This document shows, one piece after another, positions 1,742 to 14,244 of a stretch of DNA of 14,244 bases (position 1 is the stretch's first letter; the number at the start of each line of letters is the position of its first letter). Both the position numbers and the translations under genes were made by a program. Location of the stretch: IMG/VR virus record IMGVR_UViG_3300029080_000085. The stretch is one strand, 5' to 3'. Under the pieces are notes generated by a model. It was not told the origin of the DNA. It did not search any database and was given only the letters and a program-made list of their open reading frames with translations. This DNA comes from a virus. Taxonomy: Duplodnaviria > Heunggongvirae > Uroviricota > Caudoviricetes.

Positions 1742-2794
1742 TTATTTCCCCACCAGCTCGTTTATCTCTTTCACTGTCTGGTTAAACCGCTCTGACTCAA
1801 GCTCAACACCTAAGGCCCGACGCCCCAGCGCCATTGCTGCTTTTATTGTGGAACCGGATCCCATAAAAAAATCAGCAACCAGATCACCAGGTCGACTACT
1901 GGCATTGATTATTTGCCGGAGCATATCCGCAGGTTTCTCACACGGATGTTTACCCGGGTAGAACTGAACGGGTTTATGCATCCAGACATCGGTATAAGGC
2001 ACGGAGACTGATACGGAGAAATAGCGCCGGAGAGATTTAAACTCATCCAGCAATTCAGAATATTTGCGATTCAGTGAATCATAAGATGCCACCAGCTGGT
2101 GGTGTGGTTGTTCCAGTTGTTGTTCCTGAAACTTCTCTGCCGCTATACGGGAAAACAGTGCCTGTAACTTCCGATAGTCAGCCTCATTCGGCAACTGCCA
2201 CTGACTGGCACCAAACCAGTGGGAAACCATATTTTTCTTACCTGTGGCTTCGGCAATTTGTTTTGCCGTTATACCCAGTTCGGCACGAGCATCCCTGAAA
2301 TACGATATCAGCGGTGCCATTATGTGCTGTTTGAGTTCCCTTTCTTTTGCCGCATAGCCGTCACTTTTGCCGCGATATGGCCCCTGGTAATGTTCAGCAA
2401 ACAGAACGCGCTCTGTGGCAGGAAAATATGCGCGCAGACTTTCTTTATTACACCCATTCCAACGTCCGGACGGCTTCGCCCAGATGATATGGTTAAGCAC
2501 GTTGAAACGTTCACGCATCATGATCTCAATATCAGATGCCAGGCGATGCCCACAGAACAGGTAAAGGCTTCCGGCAGGCTTTAACACCCGCCAGAACTGG
2601 GCCAGACAGTGGTCCAGCCACTTAAGGTAATCTTCGTCCCCTTTCCACTGATTGTCCCAGCCGTTGGGTTTCACCTTGAAGTACGGCGGATCGGTAACAA
2701 TCAGGTCAATGGAATCATCAGGCAGGGACTGAATAAAATGCAGGCAATCAGCGTTGATTAAATCAACACTGTTTATTTTTACAGTATTTTTCAT
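1742..2794 (-). CDS. DNA methyltransferase (beta-class N6-adenine/N4-cytosine family), no adjacent recognisable restriction enzyme
   Basis: 350-aa ORF with motif IV DLIVTDPPYF near the N-terminus and motif I FFMGSGSTIKAAMALGRRALGVELE near the C-terminus (order IV then I). Confidence 0.85.
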   Translation of the reverse strand: MKNTVKINSVDLINADCLHFIQSLPDDSIDLIVTDPPYFKVKPNGWDNQWKGDEDYLKWLDHCLAQFWRVLKPAGSLYLFCGHRLASDIEIMMRERFNVLNHIIWAKPSGRWNGCNKESLRAYFPATERVLFAEHYQGPYRGKSDGYAAKERELKQHIMAPLISYFRDARAELGITAKQIAEATGKKNMVSHWFGASQWQLPNEADYRKLQALFSRIAAEKFQEQQLEQPHHQLVASYDSLNRKYSELLDEFKSLRRYFSVSVSVPYTDVWMHKPVQFYPGKHPCEKPADMLRQIINASSRPGDLVADFFMGSGSTIKAAMALGRRALGVELESERFNQTVKEINELVGK

Positions 2795-2943: not shown

Positions 2944-3138
2944 TCATTGCTGAAGGCGTCTGTAACAGCCGAACTGGTAATCTGCCAGCCCCGCCATAAC
3001 CAGCTGGGTCAGTATTAACTGACAGCGTTCGCGTGAAAGGTATGTGTTTTGTGCAATCTCCCCGACTGTTGCCGGTTCGATGCTTAATTCATTAAAAACA
3101 ACTTTCGCCGTTTCTGTCATATCTTGCTGTTTTAGCAT
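2944..3138 (-). CDS. Small putative winged-helix-like DNA-binding protein (64 aa)
   Basis: Preferred start ATG 3138 preceded by GAAGGGAAAAAG; the longer ORF-track start at 3162 lacks an RBS. Segment ATVGEIAQNTYLSRERCQLILTQLVMAGL resembles a recognition helix and wing. Fold assignment is inference. Confidence 0.35.
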   Translation of the reverse strand: MLKQQDMTETAKVVFNELSIEPATVGEIAQNTYLSRERCQLILTQLVMAGLADYQFGCYRRLQQ

Positions 3139-3257
3139 GTCTTTTTCCCTTCTGGTTAACATGACATACCAATAACTCTTGTCTAAAAAGCCAGCAAGAT
3201 AAACAGTCAGTATTCACGACCACCAGCGTGTTTACCGTACTGCACCAATGTTTAATT

Positions 3258-3281
3258 TATAAAAAAACCGCGAGAACGCGG
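3258..3281 (-). terminator. Intrinsic terminator downstream of the 176-aa moron ORF
   Basis: Perfect stem CCGCG-AGAA-CGCGG (3268-3281) followed on the minus strand by a 7-nt U-run (complement of A-run 3261-3267). Confidence 0.6.
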
Positions 3282-3319
3282 TAAGTATTGTTAAAAAACC
3301 AACAGTAATTTCACTCAAC

Positions 3320-3850
3320 TTATTTAATACATTCTTTTGCTTGCGCATAATAAATTTTATGAGTATTAGCAAGCTTAACGAAGTTATACTTAACTGCCCC
3401 TAACAGGGTTCCAACTCTTGTATGCCCTTCCATTAAATGGAGCCCTGTTGTATTACTTTTCAGCAAAGCTCGATCTATAAAAAATGGTGGTTCGCACCAT
3501 GTGCCAAAATTACACCAATGCGCTTTTATTTCATCATCCATAAATACATCACCTTTACGGGTCATGTAATCTTCAACGACCTCATGCAAAAAATCAGGGC
3601 AAGTAGCATTATCCCCGATAGTTAAAAAGTTTTTAGTGGGAAGTTCAATCAATTTCCATTCAATTTGGTCAATATCAAGATCCCCATAAAGCTTCTGAAA
3701 TCTGTCATCGCCTACCAATCCATAATAAATCTCCTGAATTACAGGAGAGGGGGCAATGATAGAATATTGCTCACGAAGTATTCTTTCAGCCTCAGGAGCT
3801 TCAAATATGGTTCTTTCTGAGAAAATAGGCAGAAGATCTCGGTATAACAT
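3320..3850 (-). CDS. Hypothetical 176-aa protein; AT-rich moron between Q and the lysis genes
   Basis: Clean ORF, visibly AT-rich relative to flanking phage genes, with its own downstream terminator and a possible SD (GGGG) 6 nt upstream. No family recognised; contains acidic/lysine clusters (GDLDIDQIEWK, GDVFMDDEIK). Confidence 0.6.
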   Translation of the reverse strand: MLYRDLLPIFSERTIFEAPEAERILREQYSIIAPSPVIQEIYYGLVGDDRFQKLYGDLDIDQIEWKLIELPTKNFLTIGDNATCPDFLHEVVEDYMTRKGDVFMDDEIKAHWCNFGTWCEPPFFIDRALLKSNTTGLHLMEGHTRVGTLLGAVKYNFVKLANTHKIYYAQAKECIK

Positions 3851-3882
3851 CCATATCCCCGTGTAAGAAAAAATAATTTAAC

Positions 3883-3902
3883 CCGCTCGGCTGCGGTTTT
3901 TT
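3883..3902. terminator. Terminator-like hairpin in the Q-proximal leader (possible tR'-region element), strand ambiguous
   Basis: CCGC-TCGGCT-GCGG followed by TTTTTT on the plus strand; on the minus strand the same hairpin is followed by GUUAAAUUAUUUUUUU. Only a 4-bp stem. Confidence 0.3.
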
Positions 3903-3943
3903 GGACTTATCAACGGTAGACATACAAAGCCCATCGTTGAGAA

Positions 3944-3972
3944 AATCTTATCCATGTTTTTTGAAAAATGCA
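3944..3972 (-). promoter_or_regulatory. Candidate pR'-like late promoter immediately downstream of Q
   Basis: Minus-strand TTGCAT (3972-3967), 16-nt spacer, TAAGAT (3950-3945). Position after Q matches the lambda pR'/qut arrangement. Hexamers only 4/6 each. Confidence 0.3.
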
Positions 3973-4004
3973 AGCATCATGTCGCTATCTTTGGTGAAAA
4001 TCAT

Positions 4005-4757
4005 TTATCTTGTCACTTTTCTCAATTGCGCTTCAGCATATGCTTCTTCCTGCCAGCACTTTGTAACCAGTTTATCAATGACGTCTGCATATCCTTTGTA
4101 CCACTGATAATCCGTCAGGTCTGTTACCAGATTCTGGACATGATGCCGCGCCAGTGTGGTTGGTAAACGGCTAAACCGATTTCCATTGCAACGCCCACAA
4201 ATCTTATAAACAGGCGTGCCATGAAGCCGGGTCCTTTTTTCATCCAGGACAATACCTTTACCCTTACACCCTCTGCACGCTGTGCTGACTTCTCCCTTAC
4301 CATGACAATGCTGACATAGTTCCTTCACCCACTCTTCCTTGATAACAGATTCCCCGCTTCTGGAGTGTTTCACCACTTCGCGCAATACATTATGAAATCC
4401 AGTACCAGCACAATGCTCACAGCGAGCCTTACTTGCCGCAGACCTGGAATAATCAGCAAAGGCAAAATTCACAAGGTAAGGAATAATCTGTAGCCGGGTT
4501 TCTTCACTCAATTTATTCAATGTCGGGTTATCCAGTGCCATCGCGTAATTGAGCAGACCTTCAATCGCAAACTGAGGATCCTGAACACCAACTTTTGCCA
4601 GGAATAAGGCAAACCCAAGCGGTGCTTTCGACTGCACCATCCCCTGCGCAGCCATCACATCCGTAATTGTTAAACCACCAGAGCCTGTCGCCGGTGCGTC
4701 ATCGCTCAATTTTGGAGATTTTGGGGAGTAATATTTCGGTAAGGCTTCAAGGTTCAT
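4005..4757 (-). CDS. Q: Late-gene antiterminator Q (lambda Q family)
   Basis: Strong recalled similarity to lambda Q: YYSPKSPKLSD...TDVMAAQGM, FAFADYSRSAASKARCEHCAGTG, CGRCNGNRFSRLP, C-terminal ...KVTR; CxxC zinc-finger pairs. Start at MNLEA (4757) preferred, with SD GGAGAA. Confidence 0.85.
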   Translation of the reverse strand: MNLEALPKYYSPKSPKLSDDAPATGSGGLTITDVMAAQGMVQSKAPLGFALFLAKVGVQDPQFAIEGLLNYAMALDNPTLNKLSEETRLQIIPYLVNFAFADYSRSAASKARCEHCAGTGFHNVLREVVKHSRSGESVIKEEWVKELCQHCHGKGEVSTACRGCKGKGIVLDEKRTRLHGTPVYKICGRCNGNRFSRLPTTLARHHVQNLVTDLTDYQWYKGYADVIDKLVTKCWQEEAYAEAQLRKVTR

Positions 4758-4770
4758 GCTCGTTCTCCAC

Positions 4771-5766
4771 TTACGCCAGTACACCTATTGCCAGCGCACG
4801 ATCGATAAAACGAAATATCAGCTCCAGCTGGGAGCCATACTTCTCTTCAAATGCCACGGTATCCGCATGCAGCTCGTCGTGATGCTTTCTGCACAAAGGC
4901 AACACAAAAAGGTCATGCGCTTTTGTTCCCATTCCACCCTGACCGTGACCTATCAGGTGGTGGGGATCATCAGCGGGCTTTCCACAACATGCACACGGCT
5001 GTGTCTTAACCCAGCGCGTGTACTTTTCATTAACCCAGCGGCGACGTTTTGGGCGTAACATAAAAGACTCCGGCGACTCCGGATCCACTTTCAGCGCCAG
5101 CACCTTTTTCGCCTTATCCTGGATGATGCTGGTGGCAGGAACCGAAGGCACAAGGTCACTTTCCCGGGTGACAGACGGCACAACAGGCTTCGGTAATCTC
5201 AGTGCCTTACGGGCTGCACTTTCCGGTAAGGCGTCCGCCAGGTCATTACGAATCAGCCACCAGCACAGTTCCGGCATTGTCACAACGTGACTGTCATCAA
5301 AACCGAGATCCCGACGCACAACAGACAACACCCAGCGGGCACAGTTATCCGTTGCCATTGATTCCAGCCGTTCCGTGAACTGATCGCGCAGCTGGTTATC
5401 GCAGTGCCAGCACAGACGGATTGCGCCCGGAGCGTGTCGCATTGTTGTCATGTTCTCGCTGTGCCAGTCGGAATGAAGCCACTGGCAGCCTTTTTCACGA
5501 AGTAACCAGCTTTCAAGACATTCCACGCCACCAGCACGACGGATCACTGCCTCATTGCGGAACACGGCCCGAACGGCAGGATCATCCGCCAGCGGTTGTG
5601 ATGCCGCGGGAACGGCACCACTGGCGAAAGATGAATAACGTTCCGGCTCAGGCTCCAGCAGGACACGCCCCTGCATAAACAAGGGCATCAGCTCTGAACC
5701 TGGCCTGAACAATACGATCCCCATACGCGGGGCAATTTCAGGGGTCAGTAGTGCTCTCACGGTCAC
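4771..5766 (-). CDS. DUF968-like (YdfU-like) protein with C-terminal HNH-like Cys/His motif
   Basis: 331-aa ORF; C-terminal CACCGKPADDPHHLIGHGQGGMGTKAHDLFVLPLCRKHHDELH; position just upstream of Q as in Qin (ydfU-quuQ). Likely GTG start, 1 nt after the upstream stop. Confidence 0.65.
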   Translation of the reverse strand: MTVRALLTPEIAPRMGIVLFRPGSELMPLFMQGRVLLEPEPERYSSFASGAVPAASQPLADDPAVRAVFRNEAVIRRAGGVECLESWLLREKGCQWLHSDWHSENMTTMRHAPGAIRLCWHCDNQLRDQFTERLESMATDNCARWVLSVVRRDLGFDDSHVVTMPELCWWLIRNDLADALPESAARKALRLPKPVVPSVTRESDLVPSVPATSIIQDKAKKVLALKVDPESPESFMLRPKRRRWVNEKYTRWVKTQPCACCGKPADDPHHLIGHGQGGMGTKAHDLFVLPLCRKHHDELHADTVAFEEKYGSQLELIFRFIDRALAIGVLA

Positions 5767-8135: not shown

Positions 8136-8810
8136 ATGAAAACAATCCATGACATCCGGCGGTCTAACGCCAGAAAACTGAGAGATGGTGTTGGCGGGAA
8201 TTCTTCCTTTGCCACTATGATTGATCGCGAGCCAACCCAGACCAGCAGGTTTATGGGAGATGGTGCTACTAAAAATATCGGTGACAGCATGGCACGACAC
8301 ATCGAAAAATGTTTCGACCTGCCTGTCGGATGGCTCGATCAAGAACACCAGACAACGAACATCACAAAAAAACCTGATGTTTCAATCACTAATAAACAAA
8401 TCACATTAGTCCCTGTCATATCATGGGTACAGGCCGGAGCATGGAAAGAAGTTGGATATTCTGAGGTTGATTTGAGCACAGCAGAAACGTATCCCTGCCC
8501 TGTACCCTGTGGGGAAATGACTTATATCTTGCGGGTGATAGGTGATTCAATGATTGATGAGTACCGCCCGGGAGACATGATTTTTGTCGATCCTGAAGTA
8601 CCTGCCTGCCACGGTGACGACGTTATTGCATTGATGCACGATACAGGTGAAACCACCTTCAAAAGGTTGATAGAAGATGGGACACAGCGTTATCTCAAAG
8701 CGTTAAACCCAAACTGGCCTGAGCCTTACATTAAGATCAACGGTAATTGCTCTATAATTGGTACAGTGATTTTCTCAGGAAAACCAAGAAGATACAAAAT
8801 CAAAGCCTAA
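8136..8810 (+). CDS. cI: CI-like prophage repressor with C-terminal LexA-type S24 peptidase domain
   Basis: 224-aa ORF; C-terminal S24 signature (VIGDSMIDEYRPGDMIFVD ... FKRL) with Ser/Lys dyad context and candidate cleavage site QAG-AW; N-terminal DNA-binding region; no SD upstream. Confidence 0.85.
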   Translation: MKTIHDIRRSNARKLRDGVGGNSSFATMIDREPTQTSRFMGDGATKNIGDSMARHIEKCFDLPVGWLDQEHQTTNITKKPDVSITNKQITLVPVISWVQAGAWKEVGYSEVDLSTAETYPCPVPCGEMTYILRVIGDSMIDEYRPGDMIFVDPEVPACHGDDVIALMHDTGETTFKRLIEDGTQRYLKALNPNWPEPYIKINGNCSIIGTVIFSGKPRRYKIKA

Positions 8811-9044: not shown

Positions 9045-9251
9045 ATGCACAAAACAGAACCCAAAATCGTCGCGCCTGGCTACACAGATGAGGAAATTTA
9101 TGAGTGGATGACAAAGAAGCTGGCAGCTATAAACCAGCTTCGTGAAGTGCTGTCTTATCGACAGGAAACAATAGACTCCTTAAAAAAACTGGATCAGGAA
9201 ATCACGGTTTTATCACAGGATGTTACTTTAGATATTGTGCAGACAAATTAG
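9045..9251 (+). CDS. Hypothetical 68-aa acidic protein, first ORF of the pL-like transcript (not N-like)
   Basis: SD GAGGAG 6 nt upstream of ATG 9045; predicted helical/coiled segment (LAAINQLREVLSYRQETIDSLKKLDQEITVL); lacks an arginine-rich motif. Confidence 0.45.
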   Translation: MHKTEPKIVAPGYTDEEIYEWMTKKLAAINQLREVLSYRQETIDSLKKLDQEITVLSQDVTLDIVQTN

Positions 9252-9657
9252 GATCCCATTCATTTTCGTCAAAATCATCAAAGTGATGAATTTGTGATCT
9301 CCAGTCTCGATAATCTAAAAATTTCTGGGCGGTTACGCTTATTTTATCAAGTGTGAGTTCATCCTGAATTGAAAGAAGAAGTTCATCAAATTTCATCTCA
9401 TTAATCTGTTTTGGCATCCAGTGATGCTTCATCAGAATAAGGTGAACCAGAGCCTTTTTCCCATTCAACTGATTATAGGGAGTGCCGAATTTCTTCCGGT
9501 GCTCATGTAAGACAAGGTCCAAAAGAGTAAGTAATGTTGCCCTTGATTCAACTTTGCTTATTTCGACTGATGACACTACCCCACTGATTTCAATGCCCCG
9601 ATACTTTCCAACATTTTCACAGTGGGATTTGTACAGCGTATAGATATTACCGGACAT
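9223..9657 (-). CDS. Hypothetical 144-aa protein; AT-rich accessory gene antisense to the pL operon
   Basis: SD AAGGA 7 nt upstream of ATG 9657; visibly AT-rich; His-rich segments (LVLHEHRKK, MKHHWMP, RDWRSQIHH); 3' end overlaps the convergent 68-aa ORF by 29 bp. No family recognised. Confidence 0.6.
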   Translation of the reverse strand: MSGNIYTLYKSHCENVGKYRGIEISGVVSSVEISKVESRATLLTLLDLVLHEHRKKFGTPYNQLNGKKALVHLILMKHHWMPKQINEMKFDELLLSIQDELTLDKISVTAQKFLDYRDWRSQIHHFDDFDENEWDPNLSAQYLK

Positions 9658-9672
9658 TTCTTTTCCTTTTGC

Positions 9673-9721
9673 GTTGTTGGGGATAACCAGATTAACCGAA
9701 TCCTTGTTGTTGGGGAATAAC
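9673..9721. repeat. Two direct repeats GTTGTTGGGGA(A)TAAC upstream of the 144-aa gene
   Basis: Copies at 9673-9687 and 9706-9721, 33 bp apart start to start; on the minus strand they read GTTAT(T)CCCCAACAAC, resembling a DnaA-box-like TTATCCCCA. Confidence 0.4.
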
Positions 9722-9988: not shown

Positions 9989-10201
9989 ACAAAACAGAGA
10001 AGAGCATCACCGGACGACGGGCTCATAACCCAATCCATCCGGGCGGCTGCCACCGCAGGTGTTCTTCTCTGTTTTGTGGAGAAACTAACCGCCCCTACGG
10101 GGGCATTTATGGAAATGTAATTGACTCAATAATCGCCGGACGGTGAGGGCTTCCTTTTACCGGAATTCAGCGCGGTGCAGCGCATATACGTGGAGAACAA
10201 A

Positions 10202-10738
10202 ATGTCATTTATTAAAACTTTTTCCGGGAAGCATTTTTATTATGACAGGATAAATAAAGACGACATCGTTATTAACGATATCGCGGTTTCCCTTTCAAAT
10301 ATCTGTCGCTTTGCAGGACATCTTTCACACTTCTACAGTGTCGCCCAACATGCGGTGCTTTGCAGCCAGCTGGTGCCGCAGGAATTTGCTTTTGAAGCTT
10401 TAATGCATGATGCAACAGAAGCATATTGCCAGGACATCCCCGCACCACTGAAACGACTTCTTCCTGACTATAAACGGATGGAAGAAAAAATAGACGCCGT
10501 AATCCGTGAGAAATACGGGTTACCTCCTGTTATGAGCACGCCAGTGAAATATGCCGATCTCATTATGCTGGCAACCGAACGCCGCGATCTCGGGCTTGAT
10601 GATGGCTCTTTCTGGCCTGTGCTGGAAGGTATCCCGGCAACAGAGATGTTCAACGTGATTCCACTGGCTCCAGGCCATGCCTACGGGATGTTTATGGAAC
10701 GCTTTAACGAATTATCGGAGTTACGCAAATGCGCATGA
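10202..10738 (+). CDS. HD-domain phosphohydrolase (YfdR-like)
   Basis: HD-type metal-binding motifs (RFAGHLSHFYSVAQHA ... LMHDATEAY...D); SD GGAG upstream of ATG 10202; first gene of a coupled operon ending in xis-int. Confidence 0.8.
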   Translation: MSFIKTFSGKHFYYDRINKDDIVINDIAVSLSNICRFAGHLSHFYSVAQHAVLCSQLVPQEFAFEALMHDATEAYCQDIPAPLKRLLPDYKRMEEKIDAVIREKYGLPPVMSTPVKYADLIMLATERRDLGLDDGSFWPVLEGIPATEMFNVIPLAPGHAYGMFMERFNELSELRKCA

Positions 10739-11396: not shown

Positions 11397-11746
11397 TGGA
11401 GCCATACAGCCTCACACTCGATGAGGCCTGTCATTTTCTCAAGATATCCAGACCGACTGCCATTAACTGGATACGCACAGGGCGTCTTCAGGCAACACGC
11501 AAAGATCCCACTAAGAATAAATCTCCTTACCTCACAACACGACAAGCCTGCATTGCGGCTCTTCAGTCTCCGCTGCATACTGTCCAGGTGAGCGCGGGTG
11601 ATGGCATAACAGAGGAAAGAAAATGTCACTCTTCCGCAGAGGTGAAATATGGTACGCCAGTTTCACATTGCCGAACGGTAAAAGATTTAAACAGTCTCTT
11701 GGAACAAAGGACAAAAGGCAGGCGACAGAACTCCATGACAAGCTAA
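11396..11746 (+). CDS. xis: Excisionase (P22-type Xis)
   Basis: 116-aa [43 protein letters not shown]..., winged-helix Xis-like; SD AAGAGGTGA; 3' end overlaps the int start, as in lambda/P22. Confidence 0.75.
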
Positions 11747-12786
11747 AGGCTGAAGCATGGCGGGTCAGCAAACTTGGTGAAATACCTGATATAACGTTCG
11801 AGGAAGCTTGTGTCAGGTGGCTTGAAGAGAAAGCACATAAAAAATCACTGGACGATGACAAAAGCCGGATCGGATTCTGGCTTCAACATTTCGCAGGAAT
11901 GCAACTAAGAGACATTACTGAATCAAAAATTTATTCAGCAATGCAGAAAATGACGAACCGGCGTCATGAGGAAAACTGGAAACTCAGGGCAGAAGCATGC
12001 AGAAAAAAAGGGAAACCTGTTCCAGAATACACGCCAAAACCAGCGTCCGTTGCAACGAAGGCTACGCATCTTTCATTTATAAAGGCCCTACTAAGAGCCG
12101 CAGAGCGTGAATGGAAAATGCTGGATAAGGCACCAATTATTAAAGTGCCTCAACCAAAGAATAAACGGATCCGCTGGCTGGAGCCCCATGAAGCACAAAG
12201 GCTGATTGATGAATGTCCGGAGCCATTAAAGTCTGTTGTTGAATTTGCACTGGCAACAGGCTTAAGACGCTCGAACATCATCAACCTTGAATGGCAACAA
12301 ATAGATATGCAGCGCCGGGTGGCATGGATAAACCCGGAAGAGAGTAAATCAAACCGCGCAATTGGCGTTGCGCTGAATGATACTGCATGTCGCGTATTGA
12401 AAAAACAAATCGGGAATCATCACCGTTGGGTATTTGTGTACAAGGAAAGCTGTACCAAACCAGACGGAACGAAAGCGCCAACAGTAAGGAAGATGCGGTA
12501 TGACGCAAACACAGCCTGGAAAGCGGCGCTGAGACGGGCTGGTATTGATGATTTCAGATTTCACGACTTGAGACACACCTGGGCAAGTTGGCTGGTTCAA
12601 GCCGGAGTCCCGTTGTCAGTGTTACAGGAAATGGGAGGCTGGGAGTCTATCGAAATGGTTCGTCGATATGCTCACCTTGCACCTAATCACCTTACCGAAC
12701 ACGCACGGCAAATAGACTCGATCCTGAACCCATCGGTCCCAAATTTGTCCCAGTCAAAAAATAAGGAAGGTACTAATGATGTGTAA
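11623..12786 (+). CDS. int: Tyrosine integrase (P22 Int-like) targeting tRNA-Thr
   Basis: 387-aa ORF beginning [48 protein letters not shown]; catalytic region [39 protein letters not shown] (R...HxxR...Y); ends 14 nt from the tRNA. Confidence 0.9.
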
Positions 12787-12800
12787 CTTATTGATTTTAA

Positions 12801-12876
12801 TGGTGCCGATAATAGGAGTCGAACCTACGACCTTCGCATTACGAATGCGCTGCTCTACCAACTGAGCTATATCGGC
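12801..12876 (-). tRNA. thrW: tRNA-Thr (anticodon CGU), thrW-type; prophage attachment site
   Basis: Reverse complement is GCCGATATAGCTCAGTTGGTAGAGCAGCGCATTCGTAATGCGAAGGTCGTAGGTTCGACTCCTATTATCGGCACCA: cloverleaf-compatible, anticodon loop ATTCGTAAT, encoded CCA end. Confidence 0.9.
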
Positions 12877-12990: not shown

Positions 12991-14244
12991 TTACGCACGA
13001 ATGGTGTAATCACCAATACCGATCCACTTGTAAGTGGTCAGTGCTTCCAGCCCCATTGGGCCACGCGCGTGGAGTTTTTGTGTGCTTACCGCCACTTCCG
13101 CACCTAGTCCAAACTGGCCGCCGTCGGTAAAACGCGTAGAGGCGTTAACGTAAACAGCGGACGAATCCACTTCGTTAACAAAACGCTGGGCGTTGCGCAT
13201 ATCGCGGGTCAGGATCGCATCGGAGTGTTGTGTGCCGTGTTCACGAATATGGGCGATGGCATCGTCAAGATCACTGACGATTTTGACGTTCAAATCTAAT
13301 GACAGAAACTCATCGTCATACTCTTCCGCTTTAACAGCCACCACCTTCGCGGGGCCTGTCTGCAACTGCGCCAGCGCAGCTGCATCTGCGTGTAATGCCA
13401 CGCCGCTTTCCTCCATTTGTTTGCTTAATGCGGGCAGGAAGCTATCGGCGATGTTTTTATTCACCAGCAACGTTTCTACCGTATTACATGTGCTCGGACG
13501 CTGAGTTTTCGCGTTGACGATCACTTTTAATGCTTCAGCAATCTCTACACTTTCATCAACATAAATATGGCATACGCCTATACCACCTGTGATCACCGGG
13601 ATCGTCGACTGTTCGCGGCACAGTTTATGCAAACCAGCGCCACCACGCGGGATCAGCATGTCGATGTATTTATCCATACGCAGCATTTCACTGACCAGCG
13701 CACGGTCAGGATTATCAATCGCCTGCACGGCACCCACCGGTAAGCCACAGGATTTCAGGGCGTCCTGAATCACCGCCACCGTTGCCGCGTTAGTGCGACA
13801 GGTTTCTTTACCGCCACGCAGAATCACTGCGTTACCGGTTTTCAGGCACAGCGAAGCGACATCAACCGTCACGTTCGGGCGCGCTTCATAAATCACGCCA
13901 ATAACCCCCAGCGGTACGCGACGACGCTCAAGACGCAGGCCGCTGTCCAGTACGCTGCCATCGATTACCTGCCCCACCGGATCGGCGAGGTTACACACCT
14001 GGCGCACATCATCGGCAATGCCTTTCAGCCGTGCGGGCGTCAGTGCCAGACGGTCAAGCATCGCTTCGCCAAGGCCATTGGCACGCGCGTCAGCAACATC
14101 CTGGGCGTTAGCGTTGAGGATGATTTCGCTTTGTGCTTCCAGTTCATCGGCGATTTTTTCCAGCACGCGATTTTTTTCGCGGCTGGAGAGTTGCGCTAAT
14201 TTATACGAGGCTTGCTTCGCGGCAATGCCCATTTGTTCCAGCAT
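12991..14244 (-). CDS. proA: Gamma-glutamyl phosphate reductase (ProA), complete, start codon at the window edge
   Basis: 417-aa [41 protein letters not shown] ... [20 protein letters not shown], matching enterobacterial ProA as recalled; proA-thrW adjacency is the classical E. coli arrangement. Confidence 0.95.

Follow-up and report, generated by a model that had tools for sequence, protein, structure and literature searches.

A divergent protein of predicted ParB/sulfiredoxin fold is encoded by a cargo cassette at the tR' terminator of a lambdoid Escherichia coli prophage

In lambdoid prophages, the slot from Q, pR' and tR' to S holds stx and other cargo genes, which depend on pR' and Q. 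When this slot holds a gene of no recognised family, the question is what the gene encodes, how it is expressed and whom it serves. We addressed this question in the 14,244-nt IMG/VR record IMGVR_UViG_3300029080_000085 (Caudoviricetes), which in its whole length is called the window here, and in which the slot is occupied by an open reading frame (ORF) of 176 amino acids (aa), named ORF176 (3320–3850, minus strand, ATG start). An earlier note, made from the sequence of the window, had reported an AT-rich 176-aa ORF directly downstream of Q; the ORF, its strand, its length and its low GC content were confirmed, GC being 0.37–0.39 across 3151–3900 against about 0.47–0.52 on either side. ORF176 is a real gene under selection. 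A profile of eight close relatives, searched against 1.84 billion proteins, matched 286 cluster representatives at E<=1e-3, most of them 165–185 aa long and aligned over nearly their full length, and dN/dS is about 0.33–0.39 between ORF176 and a 94%-identical E. coli allele. The best explanation that we can offer, the case for which we judge to be about evenly balanced, is that ORF176 is a single-gene cargo cassette encoding a stand-alone, highly divergent member of the ParB/sulfiredoxin (Srx) superfamily, for which a role in conflict is proposed.

Sequence libraries gave little guidance to the identity of the protein. No match to ORF176 was found in Pfam, NCBIfam, PADLOC or the PDB sequences, with the single sequence or with profiles, and the only library match was phrog_8867, of 'unknown function', in agreement with the earlier statement that the ORF shows no recognised family. 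RefSeq holds an identical ORF (WP_016242584.1) as a 'hypothetical protein'. The family is uncharacterised, every database name that we met being 'hypothetical' or 'uncharacterised' protein, and no paper was retrieved under the protein accession or under 'ParB Srx' combined with 'prophage'.

The structural model was more informative. The AlphaFold2 model of ORF176, built on an alignment of 119 family members, has a predicted local distance difference test score (pLDDT) of 93.7 and a predicted template modelling score (pTM) of 0.89. When it was searched against 48,164 chains, the best eight matches were PadC, the ParB-N domain of pNOB8, two sulfiredoxins, SbnI, BrxU (DUF262), free serine kinase and KorB, followed by Osa, Atu1540, SspE and Spo0J, and all of these matches to the model are ParB/Srx-fold proteins. 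ParB/Srx and GmrSD N-terminal domains again dominated a Foldseek comparison with viral models, and a poor first model of ORF176 had already matched ParB-N. The model displays the mixed sheet with a strand, GxxR-helix, strand core that characterises the ParB/Srx fold, and we consider it quite probable that the core of ORF176, residues about 58–172, adopts this fold. Beyond the minimal fold, the model has an N-terminal helical extension or bundle (about 1–57) and an inserted helix pair (85–115), and the protein ends five residues past the last strand.

Conservation across the 119 members points to one loop of this predicted core. The residues conserved throughout the family are P34, Y55, W65, W112, T117, W118, P122, E141, G142, H143, T144, R145, L149 and H164, giving the signature W-x4-T-W-x3-P ... 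L-H-L-V-E-G-H-T-R-x-G-x-L-x-G ... H-x-x-W-x-G. Its centre, EGHTR, is encoded at 3416–3430 (minus strand), was delimited by conservation together with the model, and is kept at 98% (E141), 99% (G142), 86% (H143), 86% (T144) and 100% (R145); H164 (98%), W112 and W118 (both 100%) are also near-invariant. In the model, EGHTR lies between strand 137–141 and helix 143–155. Because of this place in the topology and of what is established for the fold, we infer that EGHTR is the counterpart of the phosphate-binding motif represented by ParB Box II (GERR), Srx GCHR and DUF262 DGQQR.

The family also shows some internal variation. One subgroup reads E-G-R-T-R in place of E-G-H-T-R. Another, of about 255–295 aa (P0020, P0057, P0058, P0061, P0093 and others), has a common helical C-terminal extension of about 90 aa, with the pattern W..V....PF..WL ... 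W and no Pfam match, while the N-terminal 'extensions' of longer members look like miscalled starts. A Pfam scan of the 119 members at E<=10 gave only weak matches, to CUE in seven members (best E 0.005) and to DUF1281 in four. The CUE domain is a three-helix ubiquitin-binding bundle. These matches may fall in the N-terminal helical extension (ORF176 residues about 30–57) and probably reflect a mere resemblance between helical bundles.

Several more specific identities were considered and rejected. The earlier note had proposed that two acidic-plus-lysine strings, GDLDIDQIEWK and GDVFMDDEIK, could be a degenerate PD-(D/E)xK motif, which would make ORF176 a nuclease of that type. Both strings exist in ORF176, and D59, in the first of them, is moderately conserved (71% of the members), but the remaining candidate residues are kept in just 3–34% (D57 23%, D61 16%, E64 13%, K66 12%, D101 3%, D105 34%, D106 4%, E107 29%, K109 3%). 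The second string lies in a loop that is prone to insertions and deletions even among close relatives and that belongs to the lower-confidence stretches of the model. Neither a conserved D...(D/E)-x-K triad nor the restriction-endonuclease-like fold that should carry it was found, the structure prediction giving ParB/Srx-fold matches instead, and we regard a nuclease of this type as highly improbable. A canonical partition ParB was rejected because ORF176 lacks a helix-turn-helix (HTH), a C-terminal dimerisation domain, space for Box III and a ParA partner: its Pfam search matched neither an HTH nor a ParB C-terminal domain, and no parA was found in the prophage neighbourhood. The pairing of a DGQQR-type NTPase domain with a DUF1524 HNH-like nuclease domain, which defines the DUF262/GmrSD type, is absent from ORF176 as well.

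Sulfiredoxin itself was also rejected because the catalytic Cys of its F-G-G-C-H-R motif is gone. In the E-G-H-T-R loop, the glycine is followed by His and Thr (86% each), and Cys is not among the commonest residues at any position. A looser relation is still conceivable, in which ORF176 is a small-molecule phosphotransferase (like sulfiredoxin, free serine kinase/SerK or SbnI) that provides the lysogen with a trait useful in metabolism or detoxification. The best eight structural matches include sulfiredoxins, SbnI and free serine kinase, ORF176 is short like sulfiredoxin and without a separate DNA-binding domain, the invariant W65, W112, W118, Y55 and H164 could form a ligand pocket, and integron cassettes often carry enzymes that modify small molecules. 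However, a His occupies the position of the sulfiredoxin catalytic Cys, a profile-profile comparison by hhalign of the ORF176 family with a sulfiredoxin profile gave a probability of 0.2%, and no linked metabolic genes were seen, including among the neighbours of the 13 distant homologues described below. We consider such an activity improbable.

The position of ORF176 was examined by a three-way alignment of the junction and by alignment of ORF176 alleles. ORF176 is a present-or-absent cargo cassette of foreign base composition, placed exactly at the U-tract of tR'. The allelic states were found by sampling down the ranking of 5,426 complete E. coli genomes, 2,870 of which match some part of a 1.3-kb region while 90 contain the whole. 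Among near-identical E. coli prophages, the junction is empty (L054, with 252 bp from Q to a 72-aa ORF), filled by ORF176, or filled by an unrelated 141-aa ORF (L055). This comparison of gene content at the Q junction, which had been put forward together with the view that the Q-to-lysis slot carries swappable cargo, therefore bears that view out, and homologues of ORF176 in other enterobacterial prophages are also first after Q. The cassette (3249–3879, minus strand) is about 630 bp long and comprises a Shine-Dalgarno sequence, ORF176 and a terminator, with no promoter. Its left junction is exact, directly after the GCGGGTT hairpin arm (the 3' arm of tR'), whereas its right junction is ambiguous, from about 3267 to 3248, homology to the empty site resuming at about 3248.

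Insertion of the cassette is accompanied by the loss of one terminator and the presence of another. What is left of tR' is a relic hairpin (AACCGCAGCCGAGCGGGTT; 3880–3898, minus strand), the stem of which is damaged by the loss of one C and one substitution, and the U-tract of which is replaced by AAATTATTTTTTC. The remaining stem of just 4 bp (-6.8 kcal/mol, z -0.2) folds no more stably than shuffled sequence does, and the terminator scanner did not call this hairpin. In prophage L054, which is without the cassette, hairpin and U-tract are both intact (AACCCGCCACTGAGCGGGTTTTTTGT), in an empty junction that runs TTGCAT-17 nt-TAAGAT, TTTCTC, AACGAT-GGG, short leader, strong hairpin and U-tract, and for the equivalent upstream tR'-type hairpin of L055 the folding energy is -17 kcal/mol (z -3.4). 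The cassette closes with an intrinsic terminator (3261–3282, minus strand), with a stem at 3282–3267 (ACCGCG-TTCT-CGCGGT, 6 G+C-rich pairs) and a T7 run to 3261. It has a folding energy of -9.7 kcal/mol (z -2.76), two of 200 shuffles fold as well, and the scanner matched it, so that the strong terminator previously attributed to the ORF was recovered independently; it is probably the working tR' of this prophage. The view of ORF176 as a self-contained moron thus holds for its presence or absence between backbone genes, its deviant GC and its own terminator, but not for a promoter of its own. About 29 nt separate the relic hairpin and junction from the ATG, a GGGGA Shine-Dalgarno sequence precedes the ORF, and the scanner found no promoter-like minus-strand site between the junction and the ATG; as read from the sequence, ORF176 relies on the phage pR'.

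The cassette that replaces ORF176 in L055 (NZ_CP010121.1) encodes, at 2073–2498, the 141-aa hypothetical protein WP_000217632.1 at the junction matching about 3249–3879 of the window; this protein has no Pfam match and its N-terminus looks lipoprotein-like by eye. Since two good copies of tR' flank the ORF141 cassette, the terminators are suggested to be the recombination points for cargo exchange.

Upstream of the cassette, a pR'-type late promoter with a lambda-like sigma70 pause element was read from the sequence (3930–3973, minus strand). It consists of a -35 hexamer TTGCAT (3973–3968), a 17-nt spacer, a -10 hexamer TAAGAT (3950–3945), 6 nt, AACGAT (3938–3933) and GGG. In lambda, pR' is a constitutive promoter, and AACGAT is the sigma70-dependent pause element where Q engages. 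The layout of lambda pR' (J02459) is alike (TTGACT-17-TAAATT-tgactc-AACGAT-GGG), with 6 nt between the -10 hexamer and AACGAT in both, and these elements are kept in six related prophage junctions. The site fell below a simple consensus promoter scanner, and we infer its promoter activity, with a short leader and tR', from this layout. In these phages the pR' transcript normally ends about 50 nt from its start; here it would extend across ORF176 as far as the new terminator, because the U-tract and part of the stem are lost and a terminator now stands after the gene. ORF176 thus probably lies inside the constitutive pR' transcript; it would be expressed in the lysogen, then strongly once more when Q acts, at which point Q-driven read-through would reach the methyltransferase and lysis genes beyond it.

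The relatives of ORF176 show how general this arrangement is. Matches in viral contigs fell in 28 loci, either E. coli-type prophages (93–100% identity) or others at 47–54% identity. Relatives are first after Q in Salmonella, Citrobacter, Hafnia and Enterobacter prophages, and at every non-E. coli locus examined the homologue directly follows a Q-like gene with no BLAST match to the Q of the window, which one annotated record labels antitermination protein Q. Downstream of these homologues come holin and lysozyme directly, Gifsy-type cargo, or the 72-aa ORF and a methyltransferase. At least 1,000 contigs, some of them from serovar Enteritidis, contain the Salmonella relative, and the ORF176 gene also occurs in enterotoxigenic E. 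coli (ETEC), avian pathogenic E. coli (APEC) and IHE3034-type E. coli. On the other hand, a homologue was found in one of 50,697 deposited phage records, that record being a Salmonella prophage, and the IMG/VR contigs examined have the gene content of prophages; this rarity and this content fit a gene that serves the lysogen.

The variety of downstream genes also bears on the N6/N4 DNA methyltransferase encoded nearby in the window (1742–2794, minus strand; PF01555 E 2e-42, PADLOC MTase_II E 3e-152), which was once thought a conceivable partner of ORF176. Under this alternative, ORF176 would be a subunit that assists or targets a DNA-modifying enzyme, in this case the downstream methyltransferase, and the two would form a split version of a ParB-methyltransferase fusion. 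Methyltransferases of PF01555 fused to a ParB fold are over-represented in prophages (PMC12704722), dioxygenases that modify DNA bases can depend strictly on a phage ParB-like protein for their activation (PMC13229309), and ORF176, the 72-aa ORF and the methyltransferase occur together in all 14 E. coli-type viral loci and in the more distant L037. However, the backbone of Q, 72-aa ORF and methyltransferase occurs without ORF176 (L054, L055), and commonly so, as the genome counts given above for parts of the region and for the gene indicate (2,870 against 90); 13 of the 14 non-E. coli viral loci (L024–L037) have no homologous methyltransferase within the flanks examined; none recurs among the neighbours of the 13 distant homologues; and a strong terminator and another gene lie between ORF176 and the methyltransferase. 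Because the genes downstream of the homologues vary, the methyltransferase is not an obligate partner, and we rate the subunit hypothesis lower still than that of a phosphotransferase.

The 72-aa ORF (2944–3162, minus strand; phrog_331 E 5e-35) belongs, like the methyltransferase, to the phage backbone and lies outside the cassette. It is also found in prophages without ORF176, and it always accompanies the methyltransferase, whether ORF176 is present or not. It has weak winged-helix-like matches (DprA_WH, TrmB, MarR_2) below the Pfam cut-offs and may be a regulator of the methyltransferase. RefSeq starts this ORF at a later ATG, giving 64 aa.

Outside enterobacterial prophages, the family appears on other kinds of mobile or variable DNA. 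A 41%-identical relative lies in arrays of attC-like repeats of roughly 130 nt in Vibrio parahaemolyticus, V. vulnificus and V. alginolyticus, as a superintegron cassette. At the V. parahaemolyticus loci L004–L006, the homologue occurs twice within 3.4 kb, with five to six attC-like repeats, beside a SnoaL_2 cassette. A one-genome-per-species sampling with a 28-sequence subset alignment as query gave 13 distant loci, in Planctomycetota, several Proteobacteria, Aliarcobacter and Acidimicrobiia. Pfam counts and all-against-all BLASTP revealed no neighbour family shared among the 112 neighbours of these loci, which include transposases, integrases and two Lamassu LmuB-like matches. Cas3 lies 4.5 kb from the homologue of L039, and other homologues have a ParD/ParE pair next door, a HIRAN protein, or, in a prophage, an Abi_C protein at a distance of about 3 kb. 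In a metagenome-assembled genome of Ca. Accumulibacter (L044), a type II-A retron (NDT effector and reverse transcriptase) ends 87 bp before the homologue, and a type I HsdR and a HEC-05 candidate defence gene come after it; the segment 6084–14418 of this contig looks like a defence island. The pattern is that of a lone gene without a fixed partner, on varied mobile or variable DNA and often near defence genes, as expected of a single-gene conflict module, although this is an association in small numbers.

Considering these results, we propose that ORF176 binds a nucleoside triphosphate (NTP) through the EGHTR loop, as the likeness of this loop to a phosphate-binding motif in the model would imply, and that it perhaps hydrolyses the nucleotide or transfers its phosphate. 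It would act alone, without a partner. It would benefit the lysogen, through superinfection exclusion or through anti-phage defence in conflicts between mobile elements, because the gene is limited to temperate elements and integrons, lies near defence genes and disrupts tR'. Osa, the fertility-inhibition protein of the IncW plasmid pSa, blocks DNA transfer. ToxB is a ParB-fold ATPase toxin (bioRxiv 10.64898/2026.05.05.722872). With these two proteins of the same fold as precedents, the mode of action might be nucleotide consumption or hydrolysis, or a nucleotide-dependent action on invading DNA. Our confidence falls from NTP binding, through acting alone and benefit to the lysogen, to hydrolysis or nucleotide-dependent action on DNA. 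A single-gene, nucleotide-binding conflict protein, for defence or exclusion, is our best guess for ORF176, and the defence effector or toxin that the earlier note had envisaged is likewise the leading guess, on other grounds than those given there.

Several observations weigh against this interpretation. At the level of the fold, no sequence link to ParB or Srx was found: PF02195 (ParBc) matched none of the 119 members even at E<=10, a profile search of the PDB sequences gave no match to the family, and the hhalign probability mentioned above was obtained with a narrow 12-sequence sulfiredoxin profile consisting almost only of vertebrate sequences and one insect sequence, human sulfiredoxin alone giving no signal. 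EGHTR was equated with GxxR by topology, not by residue-level superposition. At the level of function, no family of PADLOC-DB v2.0.0 matched ORF176 at E<=0.1, and the association with defence islands rests on two to four of the 13 distant loci. At the level of expression, a T-rich run still follows the relic hairpin, 6 nt away; the E. coli alleles of 94% identity keep an intact tR' stem; and the homologues of L024 and L033 lie behind a fully intact tR', which would make them dependent on Q only. Upstream of the Salmonella homologue lies a promoter-like site, and no terminator-like site was called between it and the gene, although by eye there is a weak 4-bp hairpin with a U-run. For these reasons of stem, intact tR' and leader, ORF176 may be described generally as first in the late operon, and the leak in the lysogen would be specific to the E. 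coli arrangement.

In another rival, ORF176 is a late-expressed phage helper or anti-defence factor, the first Q-dependent late product, which might neutralise host defence or manipulate nucleotide pools instead of protecting the lysogen. In L024 and L033, expression would be strictly Q-dependent, the gene is always first after Q in enterobacterial prophages, and phage ParB-fold proteins have been suggested to serve anti-defence or phage-host roles (PMC12704722). Homologues are nevertheless also chromosomal integron cassettes and members of non-phage defence islands, they are near-absent from sequenced phage isolates, as the single match in deposited records indicates, and in E. coli the cassette interrupts the U-tract of the very terminator that would silence the gene in the lysogen. 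We think this alternative unlikely, if less so than a phosphotransferase. Returning to the conflict protein that we prefer, its most far-reaching form would make ORF176 the founder of a single-gene module for anti-phage defence or superinfection exclusion, an NTPase of ParB/Srx fold and roughly 175 aa that moves as a free cassette among late-promoter leaders, integrons and defence islands, and that in E. coli gained constant expression through replacement of tR', turning a '6S-type' leader RNA into an mRNA. This form is put forward tentatively, as a proposal that we rate above each of these rivals but well short of probable.

The remainder of the window agrees with this placement. It corresponds to the regulatory half of a lambdoid E. 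coli prophage, from early to late genes, read on the minus strand, and several complete genomes, among them those of swine strain 210221272 and of ETEC strains, match the region tested at 100% identity. From right to left, the gene order is integrase (11623–12786, beside tRNA-Thr(CGT)), LexA/S24-type repressor (8136–8810), a CII-like gene, RusA, KilA-N, DUF968 and Q, followed after Q by ORF176, the 72-aa ORF, the N6/N4 methyltransferase, a P21-type holin, DUF1327 and lysozyme. The late-gene antiterminator Q (4005–4784, minus strand) has 259 aa, matches PF03589 Antiterm (E 4.3e-53) and phrog_127 (E 4.5e-108), and is labelled ydfT / antitermination protein in RefSeq. It is of the PF03589 type, with a match to a DnaJ-like CxxCxGxG zinc finger, yet is followed by a lambda-like pR' layout. 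Because the integrase region (11623–12876) abuts tRNA-Thr(CGT) and the next gene (12991–14244) is a host gene of the aldehyde-dehydrogenase family, tRNA-Thr is probably the attachment site of the prophage.

Two further ORFs of the window were noted. A second low-GC patch (0.35–0.40, at 9151–9700) adjoins the repressor gene and contains an ORF of 144 aa (9223–9657, minus strand) without Pfam match, which may be another cargo or exclusion gene, of the immunity region. In the early region, a 187-aa ORF (10175–10738) has a sub-threshold match to a YfbR-like HD 5'-deoxynucleotidase (E 3e-5, 24.2 bits against a cut-off of 25.9) and may encode a nucleotide-pool enzyme.

As to significance, the ParB-CTPase fold is now being recognised as a versatile nucleotide switch that is reused on mobile elements, and the ORF176 family would add to it an unclassified branch with a signature of its own (EGHTR, W...TW), unclassified because surveys based on PF02195 cannot see this family. 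Its spread is wide but sparse, over Enterobacterales, Vibrio, Planctomycetota, Campylobacterota and Acidimicrobiia. A phenotype at the level of the lysogen would be of practical interest, because the gene occupies the Shiga-toxin slot and is carried by Salmonella in the numbers given above and by ETEC, APEC and IHE3034-type E. coli. The replacement of tR' suggests a simple route by which cargo may be expressed in a lysogen without bringing a promoter. ORF176 is best filed as a new divergent variant of a known superfamily, and as cargo of a well-known prophage slot.

Comparison with known systems delimits what is new in this variant. Osa (PDB 4OVB, 188 aa), a plasmid protein, has its fold in common with ORF176 by structural match, but the two show no detectable sequence similarity, and neither the N-terminal helical extension nor the EGHTR / W...TW signature is present in Osa. 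Relative to sulfiredoxin (PF02195; PDB 6KY4, 1YZS), the catalytic Cys of FGGCHR is replaced in the EGHTR loop, and ORF176 has about 60 extra N-terminal residues and the inserted helical pair (85–115). The CTP switches ParB, Noc, KorB and PadC differ in that ORF176 is without their HTH, C-terminal dimerisation domain, post-strand Box III region and parA neighbour. Closer in character are the orphan ParB-CTPase-fold proteins, such as the CdiA toxin domain ToxB and short single-domain ParB-like proteins of phages, which are like ORF176 in fold and in their enrichment in prophages and plasmids, and which act without ParA, parS or HTH, with a nucleotide specificity that can shift to ATP or GTP. Orphan proteins of this fold are over-represented on mobile elements, and their ligands are ATP, GTP or CTP (PMC12704722). 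The surveys of such proteins start from PF02195, which misses the ORF176 family, and ToxB has a cognate immunity protein whereas ORF176 has no conserved neighbour. Finally, cargo of the stx type shares with ORF176 the genomic position and the dependence on pR' and Q; its products are unrelated, and the ORF176 cassette differs in destroying the U-tract of tR' and in supplying a replacement terminator after the gene.

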